Positions 6,600-48,157 of a stretch of 64,000 nucleotides of DNA are shown here, in pieces. Source of the DNA: Eubacteriales bacterium. Lineage in GTDB: Bacteria > Bacillota > Clostridia > Christensenellales > JAWKQI01. The notes under the pieces are model-generated. The model was not told the origin of the DNA. It ran no database searches and saw nothing but the letters and a program-made list of their open reading frames with translations. The stretch is taken from NCBI GenBank assembly GCA_041390245.1, contig JAWKQI010000001.1:107558-171557 (forward strand), given 5' to 3'. The stretch's first letter is position 1. Each line of letters starts with the position of its first letter. A program made the position numbers and the translations under genes.

Positions 6600-7343
6600 T
6601 TATGGCATAACTACTCCACCATTTGGCGAAATCGTCTGCCCTGTCACATACTTTGCATTAACCAAGTATTCAACACACTGGGAAATGTCCCCTACTTCTC
6701 CTATTCCTTTAAGCGGTACTGTTTTTCTTTTCTTCTCTATGCCTTCTTCTCCTGCCTTTTTAAGCATATCAGTTAAGATAAAACCAGGAGCAACGCTGTT
6801 AACACGTATATTATATTTCCCAAATTCAAGTGCTAATGACCTTGTGATAGCTATTACGCCGCCTTTTGATGCAGAATAATCCGCTCCGCTTGACACTCCA
6901 ACTAACCCGCCTATCGAAGAGATATTTACTATACAACCCTCGTTAGCTTTTACCATATACGGCATAACTAAATGGGAACAGTGGATACACCCCATAAGAT
7001 TTACGTTTATAAGCCGCGTATACTGTTCCGGTGTCAGTTTTAAAAAGCTAATTCCATTGCTTATAGCGGCATTGTTGACTAAAACGTCTATATTGCTTCC
7101 AAAGTTTTTTACTGCCGTGTCAACTATTCTTTTGCATGAATTATATTCAGCCACATCTGCCTGGACAGCCACGCCTTCAACCCCATATTGACTTTTTATT
7201 TCACTTACTAAATCACTGGCAAGCTTTTGGCTGGTATCGCTCACAAAATCAATTACTACGTTATAACCCATCTTTGCAAGCCTTTTAACTATGTCCCGCC
7301 CGATTCCTCTGGATCCGCCTGTAACAATTGCATTTTTTGCCAC
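6600..7343 (-). CDS. Short-chain dehydrogenase/reductase, FabG-like
   Basis: TGGSRGIG, NNAA and YSASK motifs. Confidence 0.85.
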   Translation of the reverse strand: MAKNAIVTGGSRGIGRDIVKRLAKMGYNVVIDFVSDTSQKLASDLVSEIKSQYGVEGVAVQADVAEYNSCKRIVDTAVKNFGSNIDVLVNNAAISNGISFLKLTPEQYTRLINVNLMGCIHCSHLVMPYMVKANEGCIVNISSIGGLVGVSSGADYSASKGGVIAITRSLALEFGKYNIRVNSVAPGFILTDMLKKAGEEGIEKKRKTVPLKGIGEVGDISQCVEYLVNAKYVTGQTISPNGGVVMP

Positions 7344-37322: not shown

Positions 37323-37910
37323 TTACTTTGTATCCCCCTTAAAAGCATATCCTATATTAAAAGCATCGATATTCATATCTATTAGTTTTGGCTTTACAAC
37401 CTGCTTTAGAGCATCTATAAAACAATCTTTTTCAATGTCCATATATGCAGCCGCCGCCCCTAAAAGAACGGTATTTACAGCCCTTATATTTCCGGCCTCT
37501 TTTGCTAACTTATCCGCCGGAACGAATGTAACGCAACCACACGCCTGCTCTAATCTCGTTTCGATATCGCCCGGGTACTTTTCTTTTCCGGTTATTACCG
37601 GCATAGGGGAAATCTCCTGTGTGTTTACGAACATCTTTCCCTTTGGTGCCAAATACTCTATATACCTTAACGCTTCAAGCTTTTCAAACGCTATTATTAT
37701 ATCTGCCCCACCTAAATCTATAAGAGGCGAGAACACTTTATCACTGCTTATACGTACGTGCGTGACAACGCTCCCTCCGCGCTGTGCCATTCCATGGACT
37801 TCTGAAAGCTTAACGTCCATCTCTTTTATTTCCGCAACTTTACCAAGGATACGGCTTGCAGTAAGAGTTCCCTGGCCTCCAACCCCAACTATCAGTATAT
37901 TCAACTGCAT
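37323..37910 (-). CDS. iorB: Indolepyruvate:ferredoxin oxidoreductase beta subunit
   Basis: GVGGQGT N-terminus, 195 aa, downstream of iorA. Confidence 0.85.
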
Positions 37911-37936
37911 TACTCAATACCGCCTTTCCTATAGCA

Positions 37937-39640
37937 TTAAAAGGACATACCTTTTTTACACAGCCCGCAACCGTTACATAAGGTTTCGTCTATAACCACT
38001 CCGTTGTCTGTATTTATTATCGCAGGGCAGCCAAGCTTTAAACAAAGCCCGCATTGTCTGCAATCAGTTACCTTTAAAGCCTTTCCCCTTGACTTTCCTT
38101 TTTCAAGCAATTCACAGGGGCGTTTGGCTATTATAACTGATATTTCCTTTTTAGCTGTTTCTTCTTTTATCGCTTTTGTCAAATCCTCTATTTCAAATGG
38201 GTCAACGACCCGTACGTTGTTTACGCCTATAGCATTAATAAGCTTAACTAAGTCTAGCTTCGGAGCGGCCTCACCTTTGGCATTTTTGCCTGTCCCCGGG
38301 TGATCCTGATGCCCTGTCATTCCAGTTGTCGAATTGTCTAGTATTATAACTGTCGACGCTTTGGCATTATACACCATGTCGATAAGTCCGGTAATGCCGG
38401 AATGTATGAACGTACTGTCACCTATAACGGCAACTGTATTTTTAGCAAATTCTTCACCGCGTGCTTTTTCTATGCCTGTAGCCATACCAATAGATGCACC
38501 CATGCAGACGCAACTGTCTATACCAAAAAGCGGCGGTAATGCGCCTAGCGTATAACACCCTATATCTCCGCAGGCTACCATGTTTAGCTTGTTAAGCACA
38601 TAGTAAACCGCCCTATGAGGGCATCCGGGGCACAAAACCGGCGGACGCTGCGGCAGCTCCTGTAATTCTTTATGAGAAATATCTTCGTTTAATATCGCCT
38701 TTTTTATCTTGTTTACGCTATATTCGCCCTGAACCGTAAACAAAGCTTTTCCTTCGCACTTGATCCCGTTTGCCTTTAGCTGATCTTCAATGAAAGGCTC
38801 CAGTTCCTCGATTACATACAGCTTTTTGACTTTCTTCGCAAAGTCTTTAACCATATCCATATTTATCGGGTAAACCATGCCCAGTTTTAAAACAGATGCA
38901 TTTGGGAGTGCTTCTTTAACGTAGTTGTAACAGATTCCGGAAGTGACCACGCCTATATCGCCTGATAACATCTCAACGGTGTTTATGTCAAGGCTATTGG
39001 CAGCCTCGGTAAGTTTTTTCATTCTTTCTTCAACTATAATATGGCGTTTCTTTGCCATCCCGGGCATCATGACGTATTTCATTACGTCTTTTTTATATTC
39101 CTTTAAAGGTATTTCCTCTCTCTTGCCTATATTTACTAGGCTCTGTGAGTGTGAAATACGCGTATGAGTACGCACCAAAACCGGCGTATCATATTCTTCG
39201 CTTATATCATAAGCTGCTTTCATTAATTCCTTTGCTTCGGCACTGTCAGCTGCCTCAAGCATGGGCAGATGTGCACTCCTTGCATAAAACCGGCTGTCCT
39301 GCTCATTTTGACTTGAATGCATTCCTGGGTCGTCTGCAACTATTACTACCAACCCTCCGTTGACACCTGTATAAGACGCTGTAAAAAGCGGGTCTGCCGC
39401 GACGTTTAAACCTACATGCTTCATCATGCAAAGTGCGCGCGCACCTCCCATTGAAGCACCAATAGCTACTTCAAGCGCAACCTTTTCATTAGGGGACCAC
39501 TGCGCCTTTACTTCGTCATACTTGACTATACTCTCCAAAATTTCAGTGCTTGGCGTACCTGGATATGCTGCAGCTACAGTTACCCCTGCCTCATATGCGC
39601 CGCGGGCATACGCCTCGTTCCCTAGCATTAGTTTTTTCAT
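37937..39640 (-). CDS. iorA: Indolepyruvate:ferredoxin oxidoreductase alpha subunit
   Basis: TPP-binding domains plus a C-terminal 2x[4Fe-4S] region (CRQCGLC...CNGCGLC). Confidence 0.88.
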   Translation of the reverse strand: MKKLMLGNEAYARGAYEAGVTVAAAYPGTPSTEILESIVKYDEVKAQWSPNEKVALEVAIGASMGGARALCMMKHVGLNVAADPLFTASYTGVNGGLVVIVADDPGMHSSQNEQDSRFYARSAHLPMLEAADSAEAKELMKAAYDISEEYDTPVLVRTHTRISHSQSLVNIGKREEIPLKEYKKDVMKYVMMPGMAKKRHIIVEERMKKLTEAANSLDINTVEMLSGDIGVVTSGICYNYVKEALPNASVLKLGMVYPINMDMVKDFAKKVKKLYVIEELEPFIEDQLKANGIKCEGKALFTVQGEYSVNKIKKAILNEDISHKELQELPQRPPVLCPGCPHRAVYYVLNKLNMVACGDIGCYTLGALPPLFGIDSCVCMGASIGMATGIEKARGEEFAKNTVAVIGDSTFIHSGITGLIDMVYNAKASTVIILDNSTTGMTGHQDHPGTGKNAKGEAAPKLDLVKLINAIGVNNVRVVDPFEIEDLTKAIKEETAKKEISVIIAKRPCELLEKGKSRGKALKVTDCRQCGLCLKLGCPAIINTDNGVVIDETLCNGCGLCKKGMSF

Positions 39641-39655
39641 ATACCATTTCTCCCG

Positions 39656-40948
39656 TTATCTTAAATCTGTTACACGAGAAGCTTTTCCGGTGAAACGTTT
39701 TAAAGTTCCTGGTTCTTTTAACTTTATGTCAACGTTTATATTAAGTACCGTAAAGATATTGTGTTTGATTTTCTTTATCAAGTTTTCAAGGTCGTTATAC
39801 CTGTTTATAAGGCCGGCATCCGTAACTTCAACCAAAACCTCTATTTTATCCATATACCCGTCTTTAGTGACGATTATCTCATAATATGGAGCTATACCGT
39901 CCATGCCAACAAGTACGCTTTCTATCTGTGAAGGGAATACGTTTACCCCGCGGATTATGAGCATGTCGTCTGTGCGGCCTTGTATCTTTCCCATTCTGGT
40001 AGATGTCCTACCGCATTTGCACGGCTCTTCTATAAGCCAGGATATATCCTTCGTCCTGTATCTTAAGATAGGCATTCCTTCCTTTGCAAGCGAGGTTATA
40101 ACTACTTCTCCTTTTTCGCCTGCTGGAAGCGGCTCCAAAGTTTTAGGGTCTATAACCTCAACCAAAAAACAATCTGTTGCTATATGCATTCCGTCTTTAT
40201 ATGTACACTCACCTGCAACCCCAGGGCCAATAATTTCACTTAGCCCGTAATTTTCTGTTGCTATTATGTTCCATCTCTTCTCTATTTCACGGCGCATCTC
40301 ATCCGTATGTCCTTCTCCTCCAAACAGCCCCAACCGCAGAGGCAGTTTTAAAGTATCTATTCCCATTTGTTCTGCAACTTCGGCCATATAAAGGGCATAA
40401 GACGGAGTACATACAAGTATAGTACTCCCAAAATCCTGCATTATATTTAACTGCCTTTCCGTGTTGCCGCTGGATATAGGTACAACTGCAGCGCCTATCT
40501 TTTCAAGCCCATAATGCAAGCCGAACGCCCCGGTGAAAAGACCATATCCAAATGCTATCTGAGCTACGTCTCCCGGTTCCGCCCCTGCACAGCAGACCAT
40601 TCTGGCAACTACCTCAGACCACATATCAAGGTCGTTTTTTGTATAGCCTACAACCGTAGGTTTGCCGGTAGTGCCCGAAGAAGCATGCACGCGCGCCAGT
40701 TTGCTAACCGGCAATGCGAAAAAATTAAAAGGATAATTCTCCCTTAAATCGTCTTTAACTGTAAACGGAATGTTGTGTAAATCGCTAAGTTTCTTTATAT
40801 GAGAAGGTTTTAAACCTATTTCATCGAATTTCTTTTTGTAATGCGGGACATTTTCATAACAGTTTTCAACAGTTTTTTTAAGACGCCCCATTTGTATCTC
40901 GGCTATTTCATCGTTCGTTGCAGTTTCCATTTTAGAGTTCCAAATCAT
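39656..40948 (-). CDS. paaK: Phenylacetate-CoA ligase family protein (copy 1)
   Basis: Paralogue of 36023-37321 with the same motifs. First gene of the cluster. Confidence 0.85.
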   Translation of the reverse strand: MIWNSKMETATNDEIAEIQMGRLKKTVENCYENVPHYKKKFDEIGLKPSHIKKLSDLHNIPFTVKDDLRENYPFNFFALPVSKLARVHASSGTTGKPTVVGYTKNDLDMWSEVVARMVCCAGAEPGDVAQIAFGYGLFTGAFGLHYGLEKIGAAVVPISSGNTERQLNIMQDFGSTILVCTPSYALYMAEVAEQMGIDTLKLPLRLGLFGGEGHTDEMRREIEKRWNIIATENYGLSEIIGPGVAGECTYKDGMHIATDCFLVEVIDPKTLEPLPAGEKGEVVITSLAKEGMPILRYRTKDISWLIEEPCKCGRTSTRMGKIQGRTDDMLIIRGVNVFPSQIESVLVGMDGIAPYYEIIVTKDGYMDKIEVLVEVTDAGLINRYNDLENLIKKIKHNIFTVLNINVDIKLKEPGTLKRFTGKASRVTDLR

Positions 40949-41198: not shown

Positions 41199-42119
41199 AT
41201 GTATATAAGCAATGTTGTAAATGTAACTAAGCCTTATTCCTATCTTAATTTTTTAATAGACTGCGCCAATCTATCTAAAAAATATGGTGAAAACATATCG
41301 GTTACTCACACCGGTTTTTCGGAATACGGGCGGCGTCTCATAATGATAAGGATAGGTACCGGCGACAAAAAACTCCTGTTTACCGGCACAAATCATGCAA
41401 GGGACCATATAACATGCTCTTACTTAATGAAAATGTGCGATGAATATTTAGCATATTTAGATAAACCGACATACTCTATCCCGTTTAATATACGCGAGAT
41501 ACTAAATAGGTGCAGAATATACATTATACCTATGGTTAATCCAGACGGGCTTGAAATTTCACAAAATATAAAGCCGAATTCTAATATAGTTCATATGCTT
41601 CGCAGCCATGATATCAAGGAATGGAAGGCAAACGCACGTGGAGTAGACCTAAGTATGCACTTCCCGTGCTTGTGGGACGAACTTAAATCACAACCTTCAC
41701 CTGGATTCGAAGGCTATAAGGGAAATGCCCCCGGTGTCCAGCGCGAGGCAGTCGCTTTGATGTCACTGTGCCGCCGTGAAAAATTCGACCTTTCGGTTTC
41801 GTTTTATGCAAAAGGCGAGCAAATATACTTTGCAGATGCTTTAACTCAAAACAAGATAAGAAATGCTGGCATCATAGCACGTAAATGCTCACAGTTGACC
41901 GGATATCAAATGATGCCTCCGCAGGAAGACCCACAGACCTATGCCGGAAGTTTTGAAAGCTGGTTCCGGCAGGAATTTGAAAAAATAGCACTTTCAATTA
42001 AAATAGCCCCGAATAATTCAAGCGGTACTCCAGGAGACATTGCAAAATTTGATGATCAAATATGGCCTAGATGCCGCTATCTGGGGCTCTTACTAGCAGA
42101 ACAAGCGATATTTTTATAA
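41199..42119 (+). CDS. M14-family carboxypeptidase homologue with substituted catalytic residues
   Basis: NHARDHIT, NPDG, NARGVDLSMHF, SFYAKGEQIYF, GSFESWF and LSIKIA align by eye to the M14 motifs HxxE, NPDG, DLNRNF, H-S-x-G and T-I-E. Confidence 0.7.
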   Translation: MYISNVVNVTKPYSYLNFLIDCANLSKKYGENISVTHTGFSEYGRRLIMIRIGTGDKKLLFTGTNHARDHITCSYLMKMCDEYLAYLDKPTYSIPFNIREILNRCRIYIIPMVNPDGLEISQNIKPNSNIVHMLRSHDIKEWKANARGVDLSMHFPCLWDELKSQPSPGFEGYKGNAPGVQREAVALMSLCRREKFDLSVSFYAKGEQIYFADALTQNKIRNAGIIARKCSQLTGYQMMPPQEDPQTYAGSFESWFRQEFEKIALSIKIAPNNSSGTPGDIAKFDDQIWPRCRYLGLLLAEQAIFL

Positions 42120-42120
42120 G

Positions 42121-42150
42121 AAAAAAGCACTTTTTAAAAGTGCTTTTTTT
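42121..42150. terminator. Bidirectional intrinsic terminator between the M14 gene and degV
   Basis: A6-GCACTT-loop-AAGTGC-T7. Confidence 0.7.
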
Positions 42151-43012
42151 ATTTTCTAAAATAAACTACCGCTAGTGTTCCCGGGCCTGCATGGCTTCCT
42201 ATAACCGGCCCGACCATCTTTATGCGTACGTCTTTTGCCTGTGTCTTTTCAAGTATTTTATTCTTTAAATCTGCTGCCACATCTTCGCAATCTGCATGCA
42301 GTATATAAACCGGGGAATCCGGGCTTTCAAGAAACTCCGCTACCTTTTCCACCATATAGCGTTTAACTTTATTAAGACCGTTTAATTTATCTATATTTAC
42401 TATTTTGCCTTCCTCATTTATCGTAAGTATCGGCTTAATATCGAGCAGTGTCCCTAGAAATGCCTGAGACCCGGAAAGCCTTCCGCCTCTTTTTAAAAAT
42501 CCAAGGTCATCTACTGCGAACCAGGCCGTAGCTTTATTTTTGTTATCCTCTACCCACTTTAAAACTTCGTCAAGGCTTTTGCCTTGATTCTTCAAATCTA
42601 TTGCTTTCATCACTATAAGCCCAGCCGGCATTGATATGCTCTTTGTGTCTACAACTTCAAGGCGTGCGTCAGGATATTCAGCTAAGATCTCTTCTGCCGC
42701 CATGCAGGATAAGTTATAGTGGCCGGATAACTCGGATGAAAAACAAAGATACAAAATATCCAGGCCTTTGTCTAGCTGTTCTTTATAAAAGTTCGCGATG
42801 TCAACAGGCGGGCGAGTAGACGTTGTAGCGGTTGCACCTTCCCGAAGCTTTTTATAGAACTCCTTTTCCACTTTTTCGTCTTTTCCCAGATCGTAAAGCT
42901 TCTCGTCATTATCAATTGTATATGGCATTAAAAATACCGGTATTTTGTTTTCTTCTGCATATTCGTACGGCAGTTCAGTGTCTGAATCTGTAACTATTAT
43001 ATAGTCTCTCAT
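42149..43012 (-). CDS. DegV-family fatty-acid-binding protein
   Basis: 287 aa with a DegV N-terminus (IIVTDSDTELP). Confidence 0.88.
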   Translation of the reverse strand: MRDYIIVTDSDTELPYEYAEENKIPVFLMPYTIDNDEKLYDLGKDEKVEKEFYKKLREGATATTSTRPPVDIANFYKEQLDKGLDILYLCFSSELSGHYNLSCMAAEEILAEYPDARLEVVDTKSISMPAGLIVMKAIDLKNQGKSLDEVLKWVEDNKNKATAWFAVDDLGFLKRGGRLSGSQAFLGTLLDIKPILTINEEGKIVNIDKLNGLNKVKRYMVEKVAEFLESPDSPVYILHADCEDVAADLKNKILEKTQAKDVRIKMVGPVIGSHAGPGTLAVVYFRK

Positions 43013-43082
43013 ATCTACCCCTCCAAAATTAATATATTATGATATCTATGAGTCCAAGCCATATAGGCTTAACTTAAAACGG

Positions 43083-46000
43083 CTATATTTTTTTTATATT
43101 ATATTCCTCAAATAATTTATCAAGCATATTAAGCGCAAACACTATCTGGTCTTCTTTATGGTCTGCTGCTAAATTAAACCTTAACCTAGACTGGTTTTTA
43201 GGTACTGCAGGATAAACAGCCGCAGGTACAAAAATACCTTTGCTAAGCATCTTCTCACTTAATATATATGCGTCTAAATCACTTCCTACAAGTACCGGTA
43301 TGATTGCGCTTTCACCCGCCAGGCAGATGTTAAAGTTATGGCGCTTCGCCTCTCTTACAAATGTCTTTATATTTTTGTGAAGAGACTTAACTCTGGAATT
43401 ATCTTTAATCATAATTTCGATAGCTTTAAGCGAAGCAGCAGCCAGCGCCGGGCTTAACCCAACCGAGAATACGAACCCCGGCATCGAATACTTAAGATAC
43501 GATATAAGCGAGCTTTTTCCTGCCAGATATCCACCGCATGTCCCGAGGCCTTTAGATAACGTGCCCATTTTTATATCTATGTCATCAGGCGCAAGGTTAA
43601 AATACTCATCTACGCCCCTGCCCGTTTCACCTATTACGCAGCTGGAGTGCGCTTCGTCTACCATCAGGAATGCGCCGTACTTTTTCTTTAAGCGAACAAA
43701 CTCAGGTATCGGCGCGATGTCTCCGTCCATTGAATAAACGCCTTCTACTATTATTAAAATCTTTTCATATTTGGGGCGGGACATTTTAAGCAGGTTTTCT
43801 AAAGCTGACAGATCGTTATGCGGAAAGGCCTTAGTATCGCTCTTTGAAAGCTGGCAGCCCTGTGTAATAGAATTATGAGAAAGCGCATCATATAGTATGA
43901 TGTCATTCTCGCTGCAAAAATTACCTACAAATGTAACGTTCGTGGAATGCCCGCCTACACATACAATAGCATCTTCCGTATGCTTCCACTCTGCAATTTT
44001 CTTTTCCAGCTTACGGTGGAGGGATTTTTCCCCGCCGATCAGCCTTGATCCGCTGGCAGAAGTGCCGTATTTGTCTATAGCTGCTTTTGCCGCTGCCACA
44101 GTCTCGGGATGCCCGGAGAAGCCTAGGTAATTATATGCGCCGAAGTTTATAACTTCCTTGCCGTTGACGATAGAGGTATCCTTTATAACCGATTCATGCT
44201 GGATAAAGAACGGGTCTGCCATACCAGAGTCTTCTATCTCTTTTCTTCTCAATAAGTAAGCCTTGTACTCTTTTGAATCTTCGAACTTAGTAATGGCTTC
44301 AACTTCTTGTTTTTGCCCTTTTACTTCCTCTTCTTCTATGCCTTTTATCCTGTTGTATAAAAGCTTCGATAAATCATATACGCATGTGCATGTAAGATAA
44401 TCGCTTTCGTTTATCGGTATGTTATACATTTCTTCTGCCTTGGTCATAACACTTAAGCTGGAAAGAGAATCTCCACCCAAGTCGTCTATAAAATGGGCAT
44501 TATCAGAGACATTTGCAACTTCTAAACTGAGTACATCTGCAAATATGCTCCTTATAGTTTCTTTTATCTCGACAAACATAGGGTCTTTTATCTGTTCTAA
44601 TAAGTCCTCATGCTTATTTACCATATCGGTTTTTATAGCTTTATTTTTTAAATCTACTTCAACGCACTTTAACTTGCCATCTTCAAGCATATTTCTTAAT
44701 GCCTGGCGTTTTACCTTTATTCCGGAAGCTAGAGGCAGTGCTTCATTAGATATTACCACTCTTGTCAGCTTTTTATATATAGGAAGATATGCGTTTGCAG
44801 AATATATCTCGTCTATTGCCCGCTTAATATCATCTCCGCTTGGGCTTTCGCCCATGTATATTACAAGCGCGATATCCTCATAAGGCCCTTCTTTTGCGGT
44901 CCCGGTAACACAGTAGCTCTCCACTCCGCTTATACTTATAAAAGCATCTTCAACCTCATCAGGATATACGTTTTCTCCGGACTCGTTTACTATAACTTCT
45001 TTTATCCTACCATCTATAAAATATTTTCCATGAACTAGCGAAGCCATGTCGCCCGTTGCAAAACATTCTTCAGTTATATCCCTTTTTTCATACTTACCGT
45101 CTATCATTCTTCCCGAGTGTATAGACTCGCCTTTAACTAAAAGCTCGTTTACTCCGGAAACGTTTTTAAGCGAATACTGCGTTGGGCTGAGTGGGTCTCC
45201 GACGCTTCCAGCAAGCATTGTACCTATATCCTCTGACAGCTCAACAGAATTTATGCCTGTTTCTGTCATCCCATAACCGTTTACCAAATGGTATCCAAGC
45301 CCGTTTACAATCCTTAGCGTTTCAGGTAAAATATGCCCTCCTCCGCTTATCATGAACCTTACGTCGCTCCCAAAAAGTTTAGACTGTATTTCCCTAAAAA
45401 ACAGTTTAGTAGCAACTGCCCTGCCGTATTTTCCAAGCCTCTTTTGCAATGCCAGGCTTCTTGACAAATATTTTTCAAGTTTGTCTACAGTCTCCTGCCC
45501 ACCGAGCCTTGCTTTTTTCAATAAACTAAACGCCACATTGTTCCAAAAAAGCGGTACCGCAAATATATGCGTTACTTTTAGTTTTCGGCAGGTGTGCATT
45601 ATTGTTTCCGGCGTCATATCCTTTATATAAATAACACATTTTGAAAATATCGAACTCCAGAGAAATACGGCGATAAACCCGAAAATATGGTGGAACGGCA
45701 AAAATGCAAGGTTTCTCATATCATCGTCGCTTAATAAATCATTTTTCTTTGATAAAATATCTTTTGTAGCTGAAAGCTGTTTTATAATGGTCTTTTCTTC
45801 ATAGACATTGACCTTTGAAGTGGCTGTGGTTCCCGATGTGCAAATGGCGACTCTGTCTCCAAATTTATCTGAAAAGCTGTAATTATAGTCATACTGTGAT
45901 AGTTTAGCAACCTTTTCCGGATCTATGATTTTTATACCCGGAAGTTTAGCCTCTGCATCCGTTATAATTGCCTTAGCGCCGGCTTGCTTTAAAATATGCA

Positions 46001-46322
46001 TCGTAGCGGTATCATCAGAACGGTAATCTATCAAAACCACATTGTTCCCTGCCGCTAATATAGACCAGAACACTACCGGCCAGACAGGAGAATTTTTTAA
46101 CTTAAGGCCTACGAATTCACCTTTTCCATCGATCTCATTTAAAATTTTTTTTGTAGCGGAGCCAATCATGCCCCTATACTCTTTATATGTGATCTTTTTG
46201 ATTTCATCACTATCCAGCAAATACTCTGCTGCAATATCTTCTGTGCTATATATCATTTCAAAAAGGTCTCTTATCGTACGCTGCTTAACTAAGCGGCTAA
46301 GTTTTTTGTCGCAGTCTCCCAT
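43083..46322 (-). CDS. Tri-domain fusion: acyl-adenylate-forming ligase, acyl carrier domain, and PLP-dependent alpha-oxoamine synthase (AONS/SPT family)
   Basis: - Residues 1-555: TSGTTATSK, GYGMTETG, TGD, GRIKEVIV..GENVYP.
- ACP domain: LGGDS619L (codon 44468-44466).
- Residues 700-1079: NYLGF, GSRLIGGE, DEAHS, TLSK924G (codon 43553-43551). Confidence 0.85.
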   Translation of the reverse strand: MGDCDKKLSRLVKQRTIRDLFEMIYSTEDIAAEYLLDSDEIKKITYKEYRGMIGSATKKILNEIDGKGEFVGLKLKNSPVWPVVFWSILAAGNNVVLIDYRSDDTATMHILKQAGAKAIITDAEAKLPGIKIIDPEKVAKLSQYDYNYSFSDKFGDRVAICTSGTTATSKVNVYEEKTIIKQLSATKDILSKKNDLLSDDDMRNLAFLPFHHIFGFIAVFLWSSIFSKCVIYIKDMTPETIMHTCRKLKVTHIFAVPLFWNNVAFSLLKKARLGGQETVDKLEKYLSRSLALQKRLGKYGRAVATKLFFREIQSKLFGSDVRFMISGGGHILPETLRIVNGLGYHLVNGYGMTETGINSVELSEDIGTMLAGSVGDPLSPTQYSLKNVSGVNELLVKGESIHSGRMIDGKYEKRDITEECFATGDMASLVHGKYFIDGRIKEVIVNESGENVYPDEVEDAFISISGVESYCVTGTAKEGPYEDIALVIYMGESPSGDDIKRAIDEIYSANAYLPIYKKLTRVVISNEALPLASGIKVKRQALRNMLEDGKLKCVEVDLKNKAIKTDMVNKHEDLLEQIKDPMFVEIKETIRSIFADVLSLEVANVSDNAHFIDDLGGDSLSSLSVMTKAEEMYNIPINESDYLTCTCVYDLSKLLYNRIKGIEEEEVKGQKQEVEAITKFEDSKEYKAYLLRRKEIEDSGMADPFFIQHESVIKDTSIVNGKEVINFGAYNYLGFSGHPETVAAAKAAIDKYGTSASGSRLIGGEKSLHRKLEKKIAEWKHTEDAIVCVGGHSTNVTFVGNFCSENDIILYDALSHNSITQGCQLSKSDTKAFPHNDLSALENLLKMSRPKYEKILIIVEGVYSMDGDIAPIPEFVRLKKKYGAFLMVDEAHSSCVIGETGRGVDEYFNLAPDDIDIKMGTLSKGLGTCGGYLAGKSSLISYLKYSMPGFVFSVGLSPALAAASLKAIEIMIKDNSRVKSLHKNIKTFVREAKRHNFNICLAGESAIIPVLVGSDLDAYILSEKMLSKGIFVPAAVYPAVPKNQSRLRFNLAADHKEDQIVFALNMLDKLFEEYNIKKI

Positions 46323-46450
46323 CTAAAGAATTCCTCCGTAATAAAAAATAAAAAAATGATGCCAGTATGGTTATAATATGATTTATAACATAATATCATA
46401 TTTTTGGTATTATAACAACGTAGCATATGTTAATTTCTTACAAATAAATA

Positions 46451-46472
46451 GGGAAGAAAATTTTTCCTTCCC
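46451..46472 (-). terminator. Hairpin after ogg
   Basis: GGGAAG-N10-CTTCCC followed on the minus strand by UAUUUAUUUG. Confidence 0.45.
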
Positions 46473-47418: not shown

Positions 47419-47667
47419 TTAATAAACACTGGCCTGTTTTTTGTCCCGTCCTTTTCTTTCATAACGGACAGTACCGTCAACCATTGAATAAAGCGTATCA
47501 TCGCTTCCTTTGCCTACGTTTATACCAGGATGTATCTTTGTACCACGTTGTCTTACTAATATGCTCCCTGCGCTAACTACCTGCCCATCTGAGCATTTAA
47601 CACCCAAGCGCTTCGAATGGCTGTCTCTACCGTTCTTGGAGCTTCCCATTCCTTTCTTATGTGCCAT
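47419..47667 (-). CDS. rpmA: 50S ribosomal protein L27 (no N-terminal propeptide)
   Basis: [16 protein letters not shown]... An in-frame TAG lies immediately upstream of the ATG. Confidence 0.95.
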
Positions 47668-47704
47668 CTAAATACACCTCTTTTCAACTAACTAAAACTA
47701 AAAA

Positions 47705-48040
47705 TTACTTTTCTTCCTTAACTTCAGCTTTTTCCTTACCGATGCTTAATATCTTAAGCTGTGTGAAAGGCTGCCTATGTCCCTGTTTCTTTTTATAATC
47801 TTTCTTTGCCTTATGCTTAAATACTATGACCTTTTGGCCTTTCCCTTGTTTTACAACTTCGGCTTTAATCTTAACATCTTTTACAATAGGCGTTCCAACA
47901 GAAACTTTTTTTCCATCGCAGAAAAGCAATGTGTCAAACTCAACTTTTTCCCCAGCTTTAGCTTCGATCTTTTCTACATATACGAAACCATCTGGTTCTG
48001 CTTTATATTGCTTTCCACCTGTTTGAAAAATCGCATACAC
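47705..48040 (-). CDS. rplU: 50S ribosomal protein L21
   Basis: (GTG)YAIFQTGGKQYK... AGGAGG lies 11 nt upstream. Confidence 0.95.
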   Translation of the reverse strand: MYAIFQTGGKQYKAEPDGFVYVEKIEAKAGEKVEFDTLLFCDGKKVSVGTPIVKDVKIKAEVVKQGKGQKVIVFKHKAKKDYKKKQGHRQPFTQLKILSIGKEKAEVKEEK

Positions 48041-48157
48041 TTAAACGTTTACCTCCTCAACCCAGTCTCGCCTCAATGGCAGTGCGCTTGCACATTTAAA
48101 AAGCCATTTTAGTGCGGCTCAAAGCGTATTTTAACATAGTGATCATGTCTTTGTCAA
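48041..48157 (-). promoter_or_regulatory. rplU promoter and candidate L21-leader RNA
   Basis: TTGACA (48157-48152), about 18 nt, then TAAAAT (48133-48128). In the leader, AAUGGC/GCCAUU encloses GUGC-AAGC-GCAC. Assignment to the Firmicute L21 leader family is not verified. Confidence 0.35.

Follow-up and report, generated by a model that had tools for sequence, protein, structure and literature searches.

The stretch analysed here, 64,000 nucleotides of contig JAWKQI010000001.1 from a Eubacteriales bacterium (assembly GCA_041390245.1, positions 107,558 to 171,557; hereafter the window), carries on its minus strand a gene (43083-46322) whose 1079-aa product joins an adenylating domain, a carrier domain and an alpha-oxoamine synthase (AONS) domain in a single polypeptide. 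This fusion protein, identical to NCBI entry MEZ4357154.1 from a Eubacteriales metagenome-assembled genome (MAG), probably acts as a self-loading, carrier-dependent alpha-oxoamine synthase whose product would be a long-chain, 3-ketosphinganine-like alpha-amino ketone. The presumed order of chemistry, i.e. adenylation, thioester formation on its own carrier and decarboxylative condensation dependent on pyridoxal phosphate (PLP), is very likely because the mechanisms of the three domain families are established and the catalytic residues are intact. A long-chain, sphingoid-type product is suggested by the gene neighbourhoods of relatives and by the sister clade of the condensing domain.

The three modules announced by an earlier sequence-only reading of this DNA were all recovered above Pfam cutoffs, and every motif that it quoted was in place. 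AMP-binding extended over aa 37-398 (127 bits; cutoff 30), PP-binding over aa 588-655 (43 bits; cutoff 21) and Aminotran_1_2 over aa 723-1060 (166 bits, also above cutoff). The adenylating domain (aa 1-560; 44643-46322, minus strand) belonged to the ANL superfamily, displaying motifs A3 (TSGTT), A5 (GYGxTE), A7 (TGD) and A8 (GRxK) as well as the A10 lysine; TSGTTATSK was found at position 162, GYGMTETG at 349, TGD at 423, GRIKEVIV at 438 and SGENVYP at 448 (GENVYP at 449), followed by Lys536. The second domain (44343-44582, minus strand) is a predicted phosphopantetheine carrier according to its Pfam score, its modelled helices (aa 581-660) and its serine motif, FIDDLGGDSLSS at aa 611, where Ser619 (codon 44466-44468), lying in DLGGDSL, would be the attachment site. 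The condensing domain (aa 680-1079; 43086-44285, minus strand) was of the AONS type, resembling serine palmitoyltransferase (SPT), with PLP fold type I. It contained the motifs GSRLIGGE (758), DEAHS (889) and GTLSKGLG (920), and the PLP lysine, stacking histidine, Asp-x-x-His pair and carboxylate-binding arginine of the AONS family were all present. Its PLP lysine is Lys924 (codon 43551-43553), and other key residues are His816, Asp889, His892 and Arg1046. The AlphaFold2 model of the whole protein reached a mean pLDDT of 84.4.

Judging from its homologues, the fusion is a member of a large full-length family in Clostridia. A search returned 1420 matches, and all 120 of those listed carried the same three domains. 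Among the matches listed, query coverage was at least 96 % except for one protein of 995 aa (P0054), identities ranged from 46 to 62 %, and the sources with names were almost all Clostridia, one being labelled as a Burkholderiales MAG. Named carriers were Christensenellales, Oscillospiraceae, Clostridium thermarum, Caloramator quimbayensis and Clostridium sp. 19966. Residues Ser619, Lys924, His816, Asp889, His892, Arg1046 and Arg1048 were invariant in an alignment of 119 full-length homologues, as were Lys536, the adenylation motifs TSGTT, GMTE, GD, GR.K and SGEN.YP, and the carrier motif DLGGDS619L. The earlier proposal of three catalytic modules in cis was upheld, with intact catalytic residues throughout, and neither the carrier serine nor the PLP lysine varied in any orthologue aligned. 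Identity within the family was 59-72 % for the condensing domain among distant Clostridia, against 33-51 % for the adenylating domain. Three loci of the same clade encoded two-domain ACP-AONS proteins of 504-525 aa (L024, 7968-9482; L026, 7926-9503; L027, 7971-9485; ACP, acyl carrier protein), and no adenylating domain was found in these loci. Locus L027 originates from a human gut metagenome.

In the proposed mechanism, the N-terminal ANL domain would convert a free carboxylic acid, most probably a fatty acid, into its adenylate. The carrier domain of the same protein would then accept the acyl group on the phosphopantetheine arm of Ser619, a step requiring a phosphopantetheinyl transferase encoded elsewhere. 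The C-terminal PLP domain would make, at Lys924, an external aldimine with an amino acid, most likely L-serine. Decarboxylative Claisen condensation with the acyl-S-carrier would then release the amino ketone and leave a free carrier thiol. In many relatives, an adjacent short-chain dehydrogenase (SDR) resembling KdsR would reduce the 3-keto group to an amino alcohol, which in some relatives could be elaborated into a membrane lipid by neighbouring acyltransferases or a CDP-alcohol phosphatidyltransferase.

According to its sequence, the condensing domain is not a BioF, KBL, ALAS or canonical SPT and belongs to a clade of its own. Among solved enzymes, it scored highest with Sphingobacterium SPT (232 bits), Thermus ThAOS (228 bits) and E. 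coli KBL (223 bits), while E. coli BioF (174 bits), ALAS (168 bits) and CqsA (87 bits in a search made with the full-length protein) were more distant. All NCBIfam equivalog models remained below cutoff (bioF, 356 for 426; KBL, 328 for 460), and CqsA-type models, at 175 bits, lay far below the others. Structurally, the modelled C-terminal domain displayed TM-scores of 0.90-0.94 with SPT, KBL, ThAOS and BioF, the superposition on Sphingobacterium SPT (8guh) giving a TM-score of 0.94 and a root-mean-square deviation of 1.8 A. When the whole model was submitted to Foldseek, only matches to the condensing domain were obtained.

A neighbour-joining tree of this domain (393 columns, 300 bootstraps) was built with solved SPT, ThAOS and KBL and with annotated plasmid-borne KBL, BioF and ALAS as references. 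The Clostridial three-domain and two-domain proteins formed one clade (100 % bootstrap), which was joined by domains terminating polyketide synthases (PKS), by standalone proteins of ~440 aa and by FAAL-ACP-AONS proteins (86 % bootstrap). BioF (87 % bootstrap), KBL/ThAOS, CFB-type SPT and ALAS all fell outside this carrier-linked clade, and the domain did not group with the Sphingobacterium SPT reference. The signatures YNY, GTSxSxSR, GH(S/A)TN, HNS, CGG(Y/F) and PGF were encountered across the carrier-linked clade and in none of the references. The PKS-terminal group included a Planktothrix KS-AT-DH-ER-KR-ACP-AONS protein, 50 % identical to the Clostridial domain. The sister clade was 40-50 % identical to the Clostridial domain, and its standalone genes had PKS ketosynthase or acyltransferase neighbours in 17-20 of 33 long loci, a pattern also displayed by a Caballeronia locus (L012).

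These data left next to no room for ordinary biotin chemistry, in which a pimelate-activating ligase fused to BioF would deliver 8-amino-7-oxononanoate. It is true that the best single NCBIfam model was bioF and that a natural BioW-BioF fusion exists (PMC9544090); however, the bioF score of 356 bits is below the cutoff, and ALAS and sister-clade proteins scored alike on this broad model. Moreover, identity to BioF was only 26-29 %, BioF occupied a clade apart, none of the genes bioA, bioB, bioD and bioW was seen in any annotated neighbourhood, and BioW lies outside the ANL superfamily and works without a carrier. Clustering with BioF together with a biotin context, named in the sequence-only reading as the outcome that would speak for pimeloyl chemistry, was not observed, and a BioF identity of the condensing domain was rejected on cutoff, phylogeny and gene context.

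Gene neighbourhoods were compared in 24 distinct loci of the Clostridial family (designated by L numbers), and a classical SDR gene lay directly beside the family gene in 11 of them. Three arrangements were found: upstream on the same strand (L001, L002, L014, L015, L017, L019, L024 and L027, those of L024 and L027 preceding the two-domain ACP-AONS genes), downstream and overlapping the stop codon of the fusion (L009, Caloramator), and divergent (L018 and L020). Caloramator quimbayensis and Clostridium thermarum both possess the fusion and an SDR. For the nine adjacent SDRs that were scanned (all except those of L015 and L018), the top NCBIfam model was NF049977, 3-ketodihydrosphingosine reductase KdsR, a model that descends from work on BT_0972 of Bacteroides (PMC9278070). 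In the three cultured Clostridia, scores of 320-350 bits were reached, exceeding those of the next model by 60-80 bits; individual values were 349.5 (L009), 348.6 (L002), 319.5 (L001), 233 (L020), 228 (L024, joint-best) and 214 (L019). Together with the SgaAB-type sister clade, these reductases lend support to the suggestion, made in the earlier reading, of a product resembling a 3-keto-sphingoid base.

Further genes of lipid metabolism recurred in these neighbourhoods. The position of the SDR was occupied in L016 by an aldo-keto reductase with an Fe-S domain, and L016, L018 and L020 also encoded an acyltransferase of the 2-oxoacid_dh type and an acyl ligase of the standard kind. Downstream of the fusion, L018 (7273-8010) and L025 (1647-2417) carried a PlsC-type acyltransferase gene; a CDP-alcohol phosphatidyltransferase gene lay directly upstream of the two-domain gene in L026, and an MBOAT gene nearby in L004. 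This association of reductase and lipid-modifying genes in several arrangements is the strongest evidence for a long-chain 3-keto amine that would become a lipid. The genes of L016, L018 and L020 formed a divergent three-gene set (L016, 328-4213; L018, 369-3823; L020, 4429-7921) composed of the KdsR-like SDR, or the aldo-keto reductase in L016, the acyltransferase (296 aa) and the ligase (569 aa). Together with PlsC, this set looks like a complete amino-lipid acylation module. A copy of the 2-oxoacid_dh-type acyltransferase, 29 % identical, was located 6 kb upstream in L017.

Several observations weigh against a sphingoid-type product. The 64-kb window contained no KdsR-like SDR, lipid acyltransferase or head-group gene, its only SDR being FabG-like (6600-7343); the absence of a reductase or ceramide synthase gene next to the fusion, noted in the earlier reading, was confirmed. 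The subclade of the window, which comprised the window protein and those of L003, L005 and L007 (83 % bootstrap; other close relatives were found in L013 and L101-L103), lacked an adjacent SDR altogether. Elsewhere, adjacent SDRs all scored below the KdsR cutoff of 400 (214-350 bits), and KdsR was sometimes only joint-best. The condensing domain stayed below the cutoffs of all three SPT equivalog models (NF047600, 314 for 640; NF047599, 293 for 500; NF047603, 264 for 670), and the tree was a simple neighbour-joining one that comprised neither SgaB nor the alpha-proteobacterial (Sphingomonas) SPTs. The adenylating domain was divergent (64 bits to its best solved relative), and a non-fatty acid substrate is therefore possible. 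Finally, Firmicutes are not among the known sphingolipid producers, and the use of serine cannot be read from the sequence.

This last point opens the way to the same chemistry with another amino acid (alanine, glycine, cysteate or other). The product would then be a 1-deoxy-sphingoid base, a sulfonolipid precursor similar to capnine or a diffusible amino-ketone signal of the CAI-1 kind. Such an outcome appears rather unlikely. In its favour, the domain was about as far from SPT as from KBL and from ThAOS, which is promiscuous; 3-ketocapnine reductases share homology with KdsR-like SDRs (PMC11211663), and a gene lacking a reductase, as in the subclade of the window, is consistent with a product used as the ketone. 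On the other hand, the annotated neighbourhoods contained no gene for cysteate synthase, the scores of CqsA-type models were far lower, and the sister SgaAB system uses serine. The serine preceding the PLP lysine was also kept, as in SPT and in contrast to E. coli KBL, BioF and ALAS; it is a weak indicator, since ThAOS and a Bacillus KBL carry it as well. As a further clue to the amino acid, T-boxes and riboswitches were sought, and the sequence ahead of the fusion contained neither, whether in the window or in the 16 relatives examined; a glycine riboswitch in L010 and a T-box in L001 both belonged to other genes.

Among solved enzymes, the adenylating domain came closest to the fatty-acyl-CoA synthetase FadD13, with only the 64 bits mentioned above, a kinship that speaks for the main reading; MenE and malonyl-CoA synthetases followed. 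Adenylation domains of nonribosomal peptide synthetases (NRPS) scored near noise, and no FAAL structure was present among 46 PDB matches. As FAAL proteins are recognised by a specific insertion of ~20-30 aa between A5 and A7, this spacing was compared: it measured 73-78 aa in the family, 83 aa in a plain ligase and ~113 aa in FAAL-type three-domain proteins. A FAAL identity was rejected on this basis, the spacing being too short for the insertion, whose presence the sequence-only reading had suggested looking for. Instead, the A3-A5 interval of the family was longer by ~45 residues, which fold into four helices in the model (aa 257-315).

A divergent adenylating domain also bears on the proposal that the fusion is a starter enzyme of secondary metabolism, loading a short, branched or aromatic acid and giving an amino ketone destined for a pyrazine, pyrrole or similar compound rather than a membrane lipid. 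AONS domains terminate several PKS and NRPS lines (PMC3870968), the closest homologue among plasmid records was the Planktothrix PKS terminal domain, and the adenylating domain diverged too much for its chain length to be assigned. This proposal is nevertheless improbable. The gene stood alone among housekeeping genes (those for L21, L27, OGG and RNase G) and not in a biosynthetic cluster, lipid enzymes recurred as neighbours in relatives, and the identity of the condensing domain among distant Clostridia is more typical of core metabolism.

Related systems are known from other bacteria. Bacteria are known to make sphingoid bases either through SPT, which in Caulobacter works alongside an ACP and an ACP-synthetase that are separate proteins, or through SgaAB; the producers recognised so far belong to Bacteroidetes, Chlorobi, some of the Alpha- and Delta-proteobacteria and a few Actinobacteria. 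The SPT, ACP and acyl-ACP synthetase of the Caulobacter/Sphingomonas type provide the three activities predicted for the fusion, and the condensing parts have the same fold and catalytic residues. The fusion differs from this system in being one polypeptide, in its Firmicutes host, in scoring below SPT cutoffs and in lying outside the SPT reference branch. In Pseudomonas fluorescens MYb115, SgaAB combines an iterative PKS with a KBL-like PLP enzyme; it is reported to make sphinganine, to incorporate labelled serine and to be commonest in Burkholderia (10.1101/2024.02.06.579051). In both systems the condensing enzyme would use an acyl chain bound to a carrier instead of an SPT-type substrate, and the sister clade was rich in SgaAB-like PKS-adjacent genes with signatures in common. 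In SgaAB, however, the acyl chain is built by the PKS, whereas the fusion would load a free acid through its adenylating domain; no PKS domain was found in the fusion or adjacent to it in the window and the 24 family loci. SgaB is moreover a separate protein, and the identity of 40-50 % given above relates to the sister clade.

FAAL-ACP-AONS proteins from marine and lake metagenomes displayed the same domain order as the fusion, and their condensing domains belonged to the same broad clade (genes in L030, 6792-10253; L031, 6474-10184; L054, 7668-11102; L059, 4931-8389). They differ by a FAAL-type adenylating domain with the longer A5-A7 spacing and a DIP2-like C-terminal subdomain (L030-L033, L054 and L059). 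BLASTP detected no similarity between FAAL-type and Clostridial adenylating domains at E 1e-8, which suggests that two or more separate fusion events led to this domain order. Neither is this order unprecedented, given the metagenomic family and an AMP-binding/AONS protein of Synechococcus PCC 7002 (B1XHP8), listed in a survey of 2013 (PMC3870968). No functional paper on FAAL-ACP-AONS proteins surfaced in searches that were not aimed at them. Sulfonolipid synthesis in Bacteroidota also relies on an AONS-family enzyme acting on acyl-ACP (SulA/CapB) followed by a KdsR-like SDR (3-ketocapnine reductase), as in relatives of the fusion. SulA/CapB is, in contrast, standalone, uses the housekeeping ACP and needs a cysteate synthase, of which none was seen near the fusion, and it was more distant from the condensing domain than SPT (166-171 bits against 232). 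The BioWF fusion of Corynebacterium amycolatum (PMC9544090) likewise links an acid-activating enzyme to an alpha-oxoamine synthase; it differs by a non-ANL activating enzyme (BioW), the lack of a carrier domain, a CoA thioester as intermediate and its place in the biotin pathway.

While the parts and their chemistry are known, we found no description of this specific fusion, of the clade it forms, of the hosts in which it occurs or of its likely role; the full-text literature searched, which mostly did not cover subscription journals, contained no report of an adenylation-carrier-AONS protein from Clostridia. We advance, tentatively, that many Clostridia (among them Christensenellales, Oscillospiraceae, Clostridiaceae and human-gut lineages) might be cryptic makers of sphingoid bases or sphingolipid-like lipids by a third bacterial route, separate from both canonical SPT and the PKS-dependent SgaAB, in which one protein would combine a free fatty acid, on its own carrier, with serine. 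If so, sphingoid-base synthesis would extend to Firmicutes, a phylum that is plentiful in guts and in anaerobic habitats and does not figure among the producers listed to date. Sphingolipids made by Bacteroides reportedly reach host metabolism and modulate immunity (PMC9278070), and a second, unrecognised Clostridial source would change the attribution of gut sphingolipid pools. The presence of spt would no longer suffice as a marker of producers, and searches for spt genes would miss these Clostridia. Should the proposed chemistry hold, the fusion would also represent a compact, CoA-free route from free acids to amino ketones, of interest for biocatalysis in the way of ThAOS and BioWF.

Downstream of the fusion, 70 nt after its stop codon and on the same strand, lay a gene (42149-43012, minus) for a fatty-acid-binding, FakB-like protein of the DegV family. 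Membership was clear from Pfam DegV (241 bits) and TIGR00762 (258 bits; cutoff 100), while the protein was not a FakB1 equivalog (149 for a cutoff of 350). As had been noted from the sequence, no terminator-like site separated the two genes, where only a 5-bp hairpin without T-run was found, and a strong bidirectional terminator-like hairpin (14 pairs, with flanking A/T runs; 42120-42150, both strands) followed DegV. Both genes are possibly co-transcribed. A weak promoter-like match was also located in the region between fusion and DegV (43123-43096).

That the two genes form a functional pair, DegV binding an exogenous fatty acid and delivering it to the adenylating domain, is doubtful, with little chance of being correct. 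Besides the short gap without terminator, it is favoured by the locus of the closest relative among the matches listed (L101, 62 % identity), where the order is L21-L27-OGG-PHP-fusion-DegV-PaaK with a fusion-DegV gap of 141 nt, and by L005 (58 % identity), where a DegV orthologue (61 % identical) is found 7 kb downstream. In L005, however, five unrelated genes intervene, among them those for GalE, an ABC transporter, a GH16 enzyme and an amidohydrolase. No DegV gene was detected within 8 kb in L003, L007, L103 or more distant loci (~20 loci), except for a copy on the opposite strand, 4.5 kb upstream, in L014. The promoter-like site preceding DegV is a further argument against pairing, and DegV proteins are known to partner the kinase FakA, not adenylating enzymes. 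As DegV stands directly beside the fusion only in the window and in its closest relative, its distribution matches inherited local synteny rather than a conserved functional pair. The hand-off by DegV imagined in the earlier reading has consequently lost ground; in the survey of relatives which that reading had called for, the fusion was conserved and the degV neighbour was restricted to one lineage.

The fusion gene has, from its sequence, upstream signals of its own, which the earlier reading had not mentioned. A promoter-like site, as a consensus match only (TTGTTA, 17 nt, TG-TATTAT; 46390-46418, minus), was followed by a ribosome-binding site (GGAGG, 46333-46337) 10 nt before the ATG, and a terminator-like hairpin (46451-46472, minus) after the upstream OGG gene separated the latter from the fusion.

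Two other genes accompanied the fusion in relatives. A PHP-domain phosphoesterase of ~240 aa (NCBIfam PRK09248, 264 bits) was encoded directly upstream in the subclade of the window (L003, 7177-7890; L005, 7082-7816; L007, 5688-6419) and in the other close relatives (L013, 2452-3276; L101, 2164-2886; L102, 7151-7876; L103, 7121-7846). Its pairing with the fusion outlasts the surrounding synteny, as it was found in two upstream contexts, i.e. after OGG or after MetH. The window itself contained no PHP gene according to tblastn, and OGG abuts the fusion there. Directly downstream of the fusion, GalE was encoded in L103 (11260-12237), only 4 nt past the stop codon, as well as in L005 (11324-12364) and L006 (7110-8087). 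These extended SDRs were considered as CerR-like ketoreductases and rejected, being clear GalE proteins (TIGR01179, 440-443 bits versus 262). Their adjacency could hint at a galactosylated product or be a coincidence.

Upstream in the window, rplU (L21) and rpmA (L27) were adjacent (47419-48040, minus), 37 nt apart and with no gene between them. An L21-leader RNA match preceded rplU (48054-48129, minus) with 34.2 bits for a gathering score of 36 and an E-value of 0.0005. In many Firmicutes, L27 carries an N-terminal extension that is removed by the Prp protease; the translation of the window L27 started without such an extension.

On the other side, a zinc carboxypeptidase gene (Peptidase_M14; 41199-42119, plus) was convergent to DegV and used the same terminator. 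In L101, DegV was followed on the same strand by an open reading frame (ORF) of 30 aa and a PaaK-like ligase gene, and the Peptidase_M14 gene therefore looks like a local insertion or rearrangement. The window also encoded a PaaK-like ligase (AMP-binding and AMP-binding_C_2) followed by two ORFs (37323-40948, minus). From their translations, these ORFs look like subunits of an indolepyruvate ferredoxin oxidoreductase, and the three genes would form a module for fermenting aromatic amino acids that has no bearing on the fusion.

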